A DNA stretch of 64,000 bases from positions 1,376,819 to 1,440,818 of the forward strand of contig OZ253466.1 of assembly GCA_965261605.1 (NCBI GenBank), written 5' to 3'. Shown here piece by piece: positions 6,941-29,200 of the stretch. This DNA is from Dehalococcoidia bacterium. Its GTDB lineage: Bacteria; Chloroflexota; Dehalococcoidia; Lucifugimonadales; UBA2985. Within the stretch, counting starts at the first letter, position 1, and each line of letters starts with the position of its first letter. Below the pieces are notes generated by a model that made no database searches, was not told the origin of the DNA, and worked only from the letters and a program-made list of their open reading frames with translations. A program made the translations under genes and the position numbers.

Positions 6941-7442
6941 CTGAGTCCTGTGCCGGCGCGACTGAGGAGTGGTTCACAGCCTCCCTCTCCTCCCACAATC
7001 GGTTCGCGGTTCTGCGGATGACGGCCTGGCTGAAGCCCCGGCGGTAGAGGTAGCCCCAAAGACGGCGTCGAAAGGTGTTGTAGTCGGCATCCGCCAGAGA
7101 CGCTGCGGCCCTCAGTCCGGCTCGATAGGCAGACTCCTCGTCGTCCAGGGTCTCCACCGCTGCCTGAGCCGTATCCCTGTCCACGCCCTTGCCCAGAAGC
7201 TCCCGCCGGATCGCCTTGGCGCTCCGGGGCCTGTGCGACACACGGCTCCGTGTCCACTCTTGGGCGAAGGACGTATCGTCCAGAAGGCCCTGCTCCTTCA
7301 GCCTCTGCACCACCGACTCCGCCACCAGTACGGGGTACTTTGCCTCCAGCCGACGCCTCACCTCCGACTCGCTGCGAGGACGGTATGAGAGGAATCGGAA
7401 AGCGAGGGAAGTAGCTTTCTCCAGGAGTTTGTCCTCATCCAT
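6936..7442 (-). CDS. recX: RecX, regulator of RecA
   Basis: LAFRFLSYRPRSESEVRRRL...SRVSHRPRS...RRGF is the repeat-helical pattern typical of RecX. It lies immediately downstream of recA. Confidence 0.85.
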   Translation of the reverse strand: MDEDKLLEKATSLAFRFLSYRPRSESEVRRRLEAKYPVLVAESVVQRLKEQGLLDDTSFAQEWTRSRVSHRPRSAKAIRRELLGKGVDRDTAQAAVETLDDEESAYRAGLRAAASLADADYNTFRRRLWGYLYRRGFSQAVIRRTANRLWEEREAVNHSSVAPAQDSA

Positions 7443-25918: not shown

Positions 25919-26239
25919 CTACGGAGAGAACAGAGACCGTACGGCGGTCCCTATTTCAGACTGCTTGGCCTCCGTCAACCTTCCGAATGTACGAATGAAC
26001 AGGCTATCGTTCAGTGTGAACAGCCTGTTGAAGCGAACCACACTTGGACGGTTCAGACCTCCCGTGCGGAAATCGCTACTGATAATCGCAATGTTCCCTG
26101 GTTGACTGCTTTGACGTGTAGTAATCTCACAAACGATCCAATCTCCCGTGCCCACGTAACTCAGCACTAAGACCGGACGCTTTTTTGAAGAGCTCAGATC
26201 AGTGAACGGGAAGGGCACCAGGACTACGTCTCCAACCAC
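25919..26239 (-). CDS. MazF/PemK-family endoribonuclease toxin
   Basis: GDVVLVPFPFTDLSSSKKRPVLVLS...ITTR...GLNRPSVVRFNRLFTL matches the MazF/PemK N-terminal beta-barrel pattern. Candidate starts are GTG 26239 (preceded by GGGAGG with a 4-nt spacer) and GTG 26251. Both lie inside the 3' end of the RM gene. Confidence 0.8.
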   Translation of the reverse strand: MVGDVVLVPFPFTDLSSSKKRPVLVLSYVGTGDWIVCEITTRQSSQPGNIAIISSDFRTGGLNRPSVVRFNRLFTLNDSLFIRTFGRLTEAKQSEIGTAVRSLFSP

Positions 26240-29200
26240 GCCGCCTCCCACTCCGGGTCCTCAGGCTCACTGAACCACTGCGACATCGCGAGCGCCGCAA
26301 ATTCGAATTTGTCCCGGTCGCCGAACACTATCAGGTCGTCCCCATCCCAGTAGGCCATGTCGTCCACTATCTCCATAGTGCGGACGCTGACCGTGCACAC
26401 CCGCTTGAGCAGGTCGATGACCTGCTCCTTGTAGTCGGCGAAGCGATAGGTGTTGAACTTCTCCGCAATGGTGGGGTCATCAGGTTTTTTCTCCTTGTAC
26501 TGGTCCAATACCCACTCTAGGGCCGACCAACTGCCCAGCCGGTAGCGCCAAGCCTCCGGCGGCACACCGGCCAGGGTGGTCTTGTCGTCCAGCGTTATGC
26601 TGCCCCGCTCCTTGTCTGCCTTCAAGACCGCCCTCTTTGCGCCACCCGGCTTGTCAACCCGCTCCAGGGGAAAGGGGTCCGCGGACTCGAAGCCTATGTG
26701 GAGGTCAAGGAGTTCCTGTCCCATCTTTGCCCACAGGTCGAAGTCGTGGTAGAGGGGCAGGCGCGGGAATTCCCGTAGCAGGTCTATCTCGTAATCATAG
26801 CGGTACACCGGATCGTGGAGGACGGCGTAGGTGTAGGCGAAGATGCGCTCTGGTGTGATGCCGTCCGGGTAGATGCTCTTGAAGTCCTCCCCCCACTCCT
26901 TCTTGTAGTGGTCGTTGATGAGCTTGATGCCCCACTCCGTGATGTTGCTCACTCTCTCGCCACTATCTGTGTAGCGGTAGAGGGGCAGGCAGGACGTCCC
27001 GCCGTCATTGGTTCCCGCGAATTTTTCGTTGACAAGTCTACTTGCTGCAAGAACAGCGAAGTGGTTGGCACTCGGGCCCTTTATACAAATAACGGCGTTC
27101 TCACCGCTTAAGCTACTGCCGAACATAGCGATATGGTTCTTTGTCAGTACATCGTTCATCACCAAGTCTGCAAAGAATTGCTTTGTAGTGAATGGCCGAT
27201 AAAGAGACGGCACCCTGTTTGCCTCGTTGTAAACGATCCGCCTGTCGCGACCAAACTTGTTACGTAAGTCACGGCTCCACTTGATTATGGGATCGTACGA
27301 GTAGTCATTTGTTTCCAAGAACGAGTTGTAATTGTCGGCAAAGAATAGCACTTTCGCGCGTAAGTTCTGGACATCAAAATCGTAAACCCACTCGTCACGG
27401 TTAGTTTTGACTCCAGGACAAACCAACTCGGCAAGGCACTGTTCTCGATTCCCACGTATGGGGATCAAATTATCGAAGGCTGCGTTCGACTTGTTGAGCC
27501 AGTTGTTGTATTTGTCAGGTGGGATTTCCTCGAATTGTATCTTTTCCAAATCAAGAGAGTTTAGGGCGGATAGCTTGTCTTGCGCTGACTGCTCGTCCTC
27601 AACCGCGAAGTAGTGCAACTTCCCATCTCCCGAGGTTGCTTTTCTTCGCACAAAAAATCCAATAGCTACCCCGACTTTGATGCCAAAAACATTACCGCTT
27701 TTGCCAGAGCTTTGTTGATTACCTCCCAAGTCCACAATATAAATGTCGCTGAACTCGCGTAGCATCATCTTGCGCAGACCATCATCGTTTTTGGCATCAA
27801 TATATGAACGGTTAGTTATAAAGCCTATAACCCCATCATCTGTCAATCGGTCGGAAGCCCATCGCATGAACAGCTTGAAAATATCACGATGACTTTTTCG
27901 GGCAGTGCTTTCCCTGCCATATGTTTCTCTGAACCGCTGCTCTATTTCTGAATATGCCCTGTTTGCGGTACCGTCACCCCAACTTTCGGCGCTGTCGTTG
28001 TACGGCGGGTTGCCTATGATAACGCTGATGGTCTTCTCGTTCTGAAGCTGTACCCGCATCCAGTTCTCAGCGGAGAGGCCGCCCAGGTTGAAGGACCCCT
28101 GACGCGCCACTGCGCCGCCCGTCGCTCCCTGCCAGTCCATGTTGTCCAGCGTGTCCACAAAGCACAGGTTGGGGAACTCCAGGTAGCGCCCCGTCTTCTC
28201 CTTGTACGTGTACTCTATGTTCAGGTTGGCTATGTAGTAGGGCAGTATAGCCACCTCGTTGGCGTGGATCTCGTGGCGGTACTTGTGCTCCAGGCGCTCC
28301 AGCGCGTCCGGCTCTCCGCTCCCGGCCAGGTAGCTGATGAGGTTGGTGACAAATGTGCCCGTGCCGGTGGCCGGGTCCAGGATCTGCACGTTCTTGTCTC
28401 CGAGACTGCGTCCGAAGTGCTTTTGAAGGAGGAGGTCGGCTCCCCGGATGATGAAGTCCACCACCTCATTGGGTGTGTAGACGACGCCCAGGCGGTCTGC
28501 GGCGGCGGGGTTGTAGGACTTGTAGAAGTCCTCGTAAATGGCCTTGAGGAACTGCTGCTTCTCGGCGTAGTCGGCTATCTCGTCGGCGGCCCGGCCGATG
28601 GCGCCGTAGTAGGCGAGCAGGCGGTCGATGGCCTGGCGCTGCACGTCTCCGGTGAAGAAGGTCTGCTCCAGGGCTTCCAGCCGGCCGGCGATGTTGTTCT
28701 CCCTGTGGAACTGGGTCTCGCGGAAGACCCTGAGGAAGATGTCCTTGGTGAGGATGTGCTGGAGCAGCATCTCCCGGACGTCGGCGTCGGATACGCTTGG
28801 GCCGATGCTCTGCCGACACAACTTCAGGAAGTCGGCCGCTGCCGTTTGGTACTCCGGGTTGTCGACCTCGGCCTCCTCGACGGCCTCCCGTAGATTGCCT
28901 ATGACGGTGGGCAGATCGGCCTTGAACTGCTGCTGCGCCTTGCGGAACTCCTCGATTTCCGGCAGCTCATAGTCCAGGAATGCGCGGATGAGTCGGTAAA
29001 GCTCGCCCGGGCGGGACATGTCGGCCCGCATTGCCTCCTCACGGTTCTGTATAAGGACGGCGGTCTGGGAGTCTTCAAAGATGATGTTGTCGCGGGGGTA
29101 TCCCCGGTTGAACTTGCGTTGGATCTCGGAGTCCAGGTCGTCGCGGCTGTCCTTGGCCTCCCAGTAGCCTCGGTTCATGCGCAGGGAGTCCTTCACAGTG

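Follow-up and report, generated by a model that had tools for sequence, protein, structure and literature searches.

The DNA analyzed here is a 64,000-nucleotide stretch from a Dehalococcoidia bacterium (assembly GCA_965261605.1, contig OZ253466.1, positions 1,376,819 to 1,440,818; hereafter the window), which carries a gene for a single-chain restriction-modification enzyme resembling DrdV and, overlapping its 3' end, a gene of the MazF/PemK toxin family. We conclude, with a probability of roughly 0.7, that an antitoxin module has been fused in cis to this DrdV-like enzyme as its C-terminal 44 residues, such that the enzyme and MazF would together constitute a type II toxin-antitoxin pair. 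With the same confidence, we propose that the fused module lacks a separate DNA-binding domain and is simply carried by the enzyme. This reading is favored because the tail is an add-on to the enzyme, is under purifying selection, is gained and lost jointly with MazF, also exists in a free-standing form, and overlaps the MazF gene in an operon-like manner, and because the genome offers MazF no other partner. It is also favored by the complementary charges of the tail (about -10.5) and MazF (pI 10), by an end motif shared with conventional antitoxins, and by a parallel arrangement that involves the toxin ParE. The relevant features are listed in Table 1.

Table 1. Features of the enzyme-MazF locus, in window coordinates
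Feature	Coordinates	Strand	Basis
Type IIL (DrdV/MmeI-like) single-chain restriction-modification enzyme, 1065 aa	26224..29421	minus	translation, Pfam, PDB, PADLOC
Final conserved core helix, KEQVIDLLKRVCTVSVRTMEIVDD	26359..26430	minus	alignments; predicted helix 992-1014 (P0001 numbering)
In-frame ATGs: Met1016 (26374-26376, MEIVDD) and Met1022 (26356-26358, MAYWDG)	26356..26376	minus	sequence
Additional tail at the C-terminus (aa 1022-1065), MAYWDGDDLIVFGDRDKFEFAALAMSQWFSEPEDPEWEAAWLET; putative fused MazF-neutralizing segment	26227..26358	minus	conservation, MazF co-occurrence, dN/dS
N-terminal part of the tail, AYWDGDDLIVFGDRD, predicted beta-hairpin	26311..26355	minus	alignment of tails; structure models
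C-terminal acidic/aromatic motif SQWFSEPEDPEWEAAW (W-x3-P-E-D-x2-W)	26236..26283	minus	motif comparison
Dual-coding overlap: final 9 enzyme codons, plus the stop codon, over the first MazF codons	26224..26251	minus	sequence
MazF/PemK-family gene, 110 aa from GTG 26251; alternative start GTG 26239	25919..26251	minus	PF02452

The enzyme chain begins with a PD..EAK nuclease motif, which is followed by a helical coupler, a gamma-type N6-adenine methyltransferase, and a target-recognition domain. Pfam assigns ISP_coupler to residues 169-284, N6_Mtase/Eco57I to residues 290-569, and Type_ISP_C to residues 669-1004 (E = 1.5e-76). The segments RPDG...WEAKD, DPATGTGTF, and GNPPYN are all invariant across 36 homologues, and the methyltransferase motifs I (DPxxGxGxF) and IV (NPPY) reside together with the PD-(D/E)xK nuclease motif in one chain. 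The closest solved relative is PDB entry 7LO5 (1029 aa, E = 1.9e-262), which aligns from its residue 4 to 1024 with residues 17-1022 of the query, and whose chain length and description fit those of DrdV in a preprint (10.1101/2021.01.06.425610). The PADLOC profile REase_MTase_IIG also matches (E = 6e-255) and ends at residue 1022. The enzyme yielded no Pfam match to a helicase domain, and its alignment with LlaBIII (query 198-1023 versus chain 752-1572 of 1578) begins past the helicase of that protein and stops six residues short of its end. Judged by this full-length similarity, which includes the target-recognition domain, the enzyme is a member of the Type IIL/IIG group.

Because 7LO5, LlaBIII, the PADLOC profile, and Type_ISP_C all end at or before residue 1023, these alignments indicate that residues 1023-1065 are an addition past the normal end of the family. 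An original prediction, made from the DNA sequence alone, had stated that the enzyme continues beyond the conserved C-terminal block near which its relatives terminate, and the comparisons bear this out. Homologues without the tail end a few residues past the last core helix, which is the junction where alternative tails attach. In translation, the end of the enzyme reads ...YRFADYKEQVIDLLKRVCTVSVRTMEIVDDM-AYWDGDDLIVFGDRDKFEFAALAMSQWFSEPEDPEWEAAWLET*. The same prediction had described the extension as acidic with four Trp residues; from Met1022 onward, the tail indeed contains four Trp and 12 Asp or Glu residues versus 2 Lys or Arg residues, giving a pI of 4.05.

This tail is widespread among close relatives of the enzyme. 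A search with the last 306 enzyme residues returned thousands of relatives. Among the 120 best matches, which are 63-79% identical, almost all have the same tail, and it is present in more than 100 Dehalococcoidia homologues. The common form (type A) has the consensus MAYW[ED]GxxL[IV]VFGDRDKHEWxMLGLSxWFSEPEDPEWEAAWSET, and a variant (type A') ends ...DDDPEYQAWLASLPDIRE... The N-terminal part is the most conserved block of the module, with W4, L9, V11, D14, R15, and D16 nearly invariant. In about 40 diverged loci the tail is kept in frame with the enzyme, and its boundary always falls at Met1022. Among 18 tails of the same length, the 35 codons that lie outside the MazF overlap have a dN/dS of 0.21, compared with 0.11 for the final 60 core codons. 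The dS value of the nine codons overlapping MazF is 0.52 versus about 1.0-1.16 nearby, as expected for dual coding. These codon substitution patterns indicate that the tail is a conserved module under purifying selection rather than read-through. When a profile of 38 tails was compared with 1.84 billion representative proteins, only 24 matches were obtained, and nearly all of these are pieces of enzymes from this family or derived from them; thus, the tail module is lineage specific.

The association of the tail with MazF was then assessed in 80 homologous loci from species-representative genomes, all of them Dehalococcoidia or SAR202 assemblies and drawn from at least 586 relatives. For each locus the enzyme C-terminus and the downstream 1.5 kb were scored, and the window was counted with these loci. 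An uninterrupted A or A' tail is present in 42 loci, and in 39 of these a MazF gene lies downstream (split by a frameshift in 2 of the 39). Two others retain MazF remnants (L004, L028) and one has a PDDEXK_3 gene instead (L031). The remaining 39 loci have no full tail, and MazF is absent from every one in which the enzyme ends within approximately 10 residues of Met1022 or has another type of tail. Within this group, MazF sequences are confined to loci whose tail is partly decayed (L016, L024, L032, L067) and to L077, where a free-standing tail open reading frame (ORF) precedes MazF. Therefore, the dependence on a neighboring MazF gene that had been put forward as a check on an antitoxin role is strongly borne out: 39/42 full tails are accompanied by MazF, and none of the enzymes without a trace of the tail is. 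Tails without an intact MazF are found in L004, L028, L031, and L067, as well as in two deletion scars (L083, L084), and these are decayed loci. The decay is asymmetric, with an intact tail lacking an intact MazF in three loci and an intact MazF lacking any tail in none. This is the expected direction if the tail protects against the toxin, since an antitoxin can outlive its toxin. As in type II toxin-antitoxin systems, the two genes are adjacent, co-oriented, overlapping, and co-inherited.

The association also holds when shared ancestry is taken into account. In a maximum-likelihood tree built from 70 rows of the core alignment, with the tail columns left out, the state of the tail changes at least 11-18 times. 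Well-supported branches provide 11 independent contrasts, and MazF changes together with the tail in about 9.7 of these and in the opposite direction in 0 (median sign-test p = 0.002), such that the association survives phylogenetic control. Furthermore, among the same 22 loci, the distinction between subtypes A and A' requires 3 changes on the MazF tree versus 6 on the enzyme-core tree. The enzyme core from the window is nearest to that of L055, which carries an A' tail, while its tail and MazF are nearest to those of L003 (91% and 89% identity). Because the subtype tracks the MazF tree better than the core tree, and because the neighbors of the window's core and tail differ, the tail and MazF seem to form a single cassette, with recombination taking place where the enzyme gene has its conserved 3' end. 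On this evidence, the tail and toxin appear to behave as an exchangeable cassette.

The presumed toxin itself has the hallmarks of its family. The MazF ORF matches PF02452 with E = 7.8e-12 and 45.8 bits, against a gathering cut-off of 23.1 bits (44.9 bits in a scan of the whole genome), and its pI is 10.0. It includes ..KKRP.. and ..EITTR.. segments that we take to be consistent with the Arg and Thr catalytic pair of Escherichia coli MazF. By profile and modeled fold, the protein is a standard PemK-family member, and endoribonuclease or toxin activity can be predicted for it. Its gene overlaps the last 28 nucleotides of the enzyme gene, or 16-28 nucleotides depending on which GTG is the start. 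A GGGAGG sequence at 26244-26249 lies within the enzyme codons W-E-A, 4 nucleotides ahead of GTG 26239. This layout would suit translational coupling, and the identical 28-nucleotide overlap is found in L005, L007, L012, and L019.

At its other end, the MazF gene stops 10 nucleotides from a convergent ABC-transporter gene, and therefore there is no room there for a separate antitoxin gene. A genome profile scan identified this MazF as the sole PemK-family gene, and no paralogue of the tail was found in the genome. A profile of the C-terminal motif of conventional antitoxins (A4) has no match anywhere in the genome, so the tail also goes undetected by it. Three AbrB-type antitoxins are encoded, but these are VapB-like, adjoin PIN toxins, and are without the end motif. 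As far as can be judged from these scans, the genome has no recognizable MazE and no other recognizable partner for MazF. The AbrB-type genes (L113-L115, at about 39.5 kb, 306.5 kb, and 1591.9 kb) belong to ordinary VapBC pairs that are unrelated to the MazF locus.

Tails are also found detached from any enzyme. In L077 and L059, 75-aa ORFs end in 53 residues that are 79% identical to an A' tail; the ORF in L077 lies upstream of a MazF remnant, and the same ORF is annotated in public records as a hypothetical protein (P0196). We also surveyed MazF in 301 sampled Dehalococcoidia genomes, 24 of which, including the genome of the window, have MazF matches. The 26 more distant MazF loci obtained (35-47% identity) have no restriction enzyme upstream, and nearly all have a small conventional antitoxin. 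These antitoxins have at least three kinds of N-terminal domain, including an AbrB/SpoVT-like form (L106, a weak SpoVT match with E = 0.013) and a form of approximately 150 aa; one form is presumably DUF2281-like. Of these antitoxins, 22 end in ..S-E-x2-[LF]-A-x-D-W-x2/3-P-E-(E)-D-x2-[WY]-x2-L. The tail, ..LSQ-W-FSE-P-E-D-PE-W-EAAW, has the same Trp-to-Trp spacing of 9 as these 22 conventional antitoxins. E. coli MazE ends IDWGEPKDKEVW (W-x-x-P-x-D-x3-W), whose Trp spacing likewise equals that of the tail. The likeness between the tail and the ends of conventional antitoxins is at the level of a motif only, and homology is not statistically supported.

A second, unrelated tail provides an independent parallel. 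Nine sister enzymes (L046, L054, L059, L064, L071, L075, L076, L077, L079) carry a type B tail (..[DE]IDPDEGLELRPEF..AAG..TIP.EEV.RRLGL; enzyme C-termini at about 7100-7270) that is attached at the same junction. In L046, L071, L075, and L077 this tail is directly followed by a gene of the ParE family (PF05016, E about 1e-10). The enzyme in L082 has no tail and is followed by a free-standing 93-aa ORF (7131-7409) and then ParE, and the last 36 residues of this ORF are 75% identical to the type B tail. We infer from these sequences that the neutralizing part of an antitoxin has probably become the C-terminus of the enzyme twice. The 3' end of the enzyme gene looks like a docking point, or hotspot, for toxin cassettes. 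Pfam returned no match for type B tails, and a suspected likeness to Unstab_antitox (PF09720) was not confirmed by the Pfam scan. Conventional toxin-antitoxin modules, complete in each case, are also found directly 3' of enzymes that are tail-less or of type B, namely RelB/DinJ-YafQ in L048 (7108-7636) and, behind a type B enzyme, a Gp49/HigB-like protein with a helix-turn-helix protein in L076 (7337-7976).

Structure models add a limited amount of information. The AlphaFold model of the whole enzyme, made with 36 close homologues, is poor (pLDDT 62.9, pTM 0.43). In it, the 44-aa tail is predicted to form a hairpin (strands 1017-1020 and 1023-1026) and two short helices with a pLDDT of 44-51, and is not confidently docked on the body of the enzyme. 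In L014, L015, and L035, the tail and MazF are in the same frame with one stop codon between them. For L035, we modeled a read-through chain in which the tail continues into MazF with Gly in place of the stop, using aligned tails and MazFs as input. This fold has a pTM of 0.77, and its C-terminal tail helix PEYQAWLAS has a pLDDT of about 91, values that are confidence scores for a single chain only. The first 30 residues of the tail are of low confidence, with strands at 2-5 and 8-11, and the MazF part matches the MazF structures of Staphylococcus aureus, Bacillus subtilis, and Mycobacterium tuberculosis (TM on target 0.7-0.78). The model fits weakly with packing of the end of the tail on MazF, given that it is one chain while MazF is normally a dimer.

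Several observations weigh against a fused antitoxin. Pfam and NCBIfam scans of the tail gave no match, a PDB profile search with the tail gave only chance-level matches (best E = 0.08), and the A4 profile fails to detect the tail in the genome. When the tail profile was aligned with the antitoxin motif profile by hhalign, the expected segments were paired, although not significantly (E = 0.094, probability 0.6%). The helix confidence of about 91 for L035 and the values of 44-51 for the window tail come from different sequences, and the latter come from a poor model. Moreover, tail and MazF overlap on the DNA, so adjacency alone gives some co-loss, and L032 and L024 keep an apparently intact MazF beside a truncated or diverged tail. 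Among the PDB profile matches, that to T4 Dmd is not significant (E = 0.25). Membership of the tail in the MazE family (PF04014) was rejected, since Pfam, NCBIfam, and PDB profiles reveal no AbrB/SpoVT swapped-hairpin DNA-binding domain.

Some of these points suit other explanations. The tail could be a docking site that recruits a MazF-fold protein as an accessory subunit, such as an RNA-directed effector or regulator, with no self-toxin to neutralize. Co-occurrence of tail and MazF fits this idea equally well, as does the survival of MazF beside the damaged tails of L024 and L032, and PrrC with EcoprrI (PMC1484252) provides a precedent for an RNase held on a restriction enzyme. Yet Pfam and the modeled fold both place the MazF encoded here among standard PemK-family proteins, the partners of related MazFs are ordinary antitoxins with the shared end motif, the tail outlasts the toxin (three loci versus none for the reverse), and the ParE of the parallel design is a classic toxin. 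Consequently, we regard a docking role as unlikely. A different view is that the tail is a passenger, that is, the 5' end of a mobile MazF cassette (an antitoxin relic or MazF expression signals) that happens by chance to be in frame and has no role as protein. In favor of this view, indels hit both genes because of the overlap, the MazF ribosome-binding site lies within tail codons, and deletion scars retain the tail without MazF. The dN/dS of the non-overlapping codons, however, indicates selection at the protein level, and the preserved frame, the invariant boundary, and the second, unrelated tail type with ParE in the same design also speak against it, leaving this explanation very improbable.

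The original prediction had treated the tail as a candidate fused or nested antitoxin, and these two possibilities fared differently. In the nested version, a 44-50 aa peptide initiated at Met1016 or Met1022, rather than the enzyme, would neutralize MazF, and this peptide could coexist with the fused form. The two in-frame ATGs are present in the sequence as had been described, with GGAG 12 nucleotides upstream of the second, gene callers sometimes list MAYW... or MDVVDDMAYW... as separate short proteins, and L077 and L059 have free-standing tail ORFs. On the other hand, Met1022 and the codons preceding it are equally conserved in enzymes lacking the tail, and anti-Shine-Dalgarno pairing upstream of Met1022 is indistinguishable between tail-bearing and tail-less genes (-6.08 versus -6.13 kcal/mol; Mann-Whitney p = 0.96). 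In addition, the commonest upstream codons (TMDVVDD) lack GGAG, the spacer of 12 nucleotides is long, and most short gene calls starting with MAYW derive from fragmented or frameshifted enzyme genes. Thus, a nested gene has little to recommend it and seems improbable, whereas the fused version is supported by MazF co-occurrence, free-standing tails, the end motif, and the ParE parallel.

If the tail is a fused antitoxin, its mode of action might be as follows. Like the MazE C-terminus, the acidic, Trp-bearing segment QWFSEPEDPEWEAAW would sit in the groove with which the basic MazF dimer binds RNA, and the MazF RNase would stay silent while tethered to the enzyme. Translational coupling would ensure that MazF is made only once the tail has been made. 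MazF would be freed when synthesis of the enzyme stops or when the flexible tail is degraded. Loss of the gene could then release MazF and cause post-segregational killing (addiction), and shut-off by a phage, or an attack on the enzyme, could release MazF as an abortive-infection fail-safe. In a broader and considerably more tentative proposal, Dehalococcoidia would possess modular, toxin-armed Type IIL enzymes whose exchangeable MazF- or ParE-specific tails tether a toxin, so that synthesis and integrity of the enzyme are monitored. The toxin would be released upon gene loss or when a phage inhibits or degrades the enzyme, providing both addiction and abortive infection, a logic like that of PrrC but arrived at by way of a fused antitoxin peptide.

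A comparison with known systems helps to place this arrangement. Like MazE, the tail is encoded directly upstream of MazF with a stop/start overlap, is acidic, contains Trp, and is predicted to be flexible, and its partner is a basic protein predicted to be a PemK-fold RNase. The E. coli MazEF structure is PDB 1UB4, and B. subtilis MazEF (4ME7) was among the structure matches. Unlike MazE, the tail has no AbrB, ribbon-helix-helix, or other DNA-binding or dimerization domain, and thus no obvious autoregulation. Whereas MazE is a small labile protein, the tail forms the end of a restriction enzyme of 1065 aa, and the tail has no detectable family membership. By analogy, we infer that the tail works like a MazE C-terminus and is not itself a MazE. 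The enzyme shares with DrdV and MmeI the order of nuclease, connector, methyltransferase, and target recognition over residues 17-1022 and a similar length, but DrdV lacks a tail and terminates 5 residues past its counterpart of residue 1022. The DrdV preprint (10.1101/2021.01.06.425610) describes no toxin partner for it.

The nearest functional analogy is PrrC, an anticodon nuclease that is kept latent by the Type Ic enzyme EcoprrI and is freed by a T4 inhibitor of EcoprrI (PMC1484252). Both cases feature a toxic RNase, predicted in the case of MazF, that is genetically linked to a restriction-modification enzyme. PrrC differs in being an ABC-ATPase-type anticodon nuclease in a multi-subunit Type I locus, with silencing that is not known to involve a fused antitoxin peptide, and a phage trigger is only hypothesized for the enzyme-MazF locus. 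EzeT (cited in PMC10865869 as reference 47) is similar in that an antitoxin moiety acts while covalently attached to a larger protein. In EzeT the antitoxin is fused to its own toxin, whereas here it would be fused to an unrelated defense enzyme and the toxin is a separate polypeptide. In the full-text literature searched, which was a limited collection, no restriction enzyme was found to be described as bearing a fused antitoxin tail. What is not described in that literature is the combination of an antitoxin segment, without a DNA-binding domain, on a restriction enzyme, in two toxin-specific versions and in many genomes; taken singly, neither the enzyme nor the toxin is unusual for its family.

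Such an arrangement would be relevant to the organization of bacterial defense. Restriction-modification and toxin-antitoxin systems are usually seen as separate modules that cluster in defense islands, and here the antitoxin function appears to have been moved onto the restriction enzyme. A single-chain enzyme loses cutting and methylation together, so it should cause little post-segregational killing, and a tethered toxin could make it addictive. This would be a simple route to layered defense, in which restriction acts first and the toxin is released if the enzyme is neutralized. As a minimal antitoxin, a neutralizing peptide of approximately 25-45 residues seems to be portable and to function in the absence of a DNA-binding domain. 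With regard to annotation, some "orphan" toxins may have partners that are hidden as the tails of large neighboring genes. The system is also compact, consisting of two genes with many natural variants.

Some loci carry further variations at the same site. Small nuclease genes stand in the place of MazF in several of them: PDDEXK_3 (GxxExxY-type) genes in L031 (7375-7740), L059 (7843-8250), and L073 (+216..+584 after the enzyme stop), and a GIY-YIG gene in L083 (4302-4679). These may be mobile insertions that displaced the toxin. Partial ParE-like matches are present downstream of MazF in two tail-MazF loci, L010 (+798..+938 after the enzyme stop) and L072 (+521..+649), which suggests stacked or decayed toxin cassettes. 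The deletion scars in L083 (4001-4258), L084 (4001-4180), and L085 (1237-1539) have an in-frame connection between the initial 10-45 enzyme codons and the final 35-60, tail included, with no MazF. L083 adjoins the same tungstate/molybdate-type ABC operon that is present in the window and therefore marks the emptied site of the island found in the window. The corresponding mini-enzyme ORFs (P0200, P0135, P0134) were considered as evidence of selection on the tail and rejected, since L083 and L084 are without MazF and the in-frame state of these deletion scars is an ascertainment effect. The enzyme-core tree is heavily mosaic. Finally, in the metagenome proteins P0126, P0136, and P0144, and in P0110, the tail reads through into the N-terminus of MazF, and these are natural or error-derived fusions.

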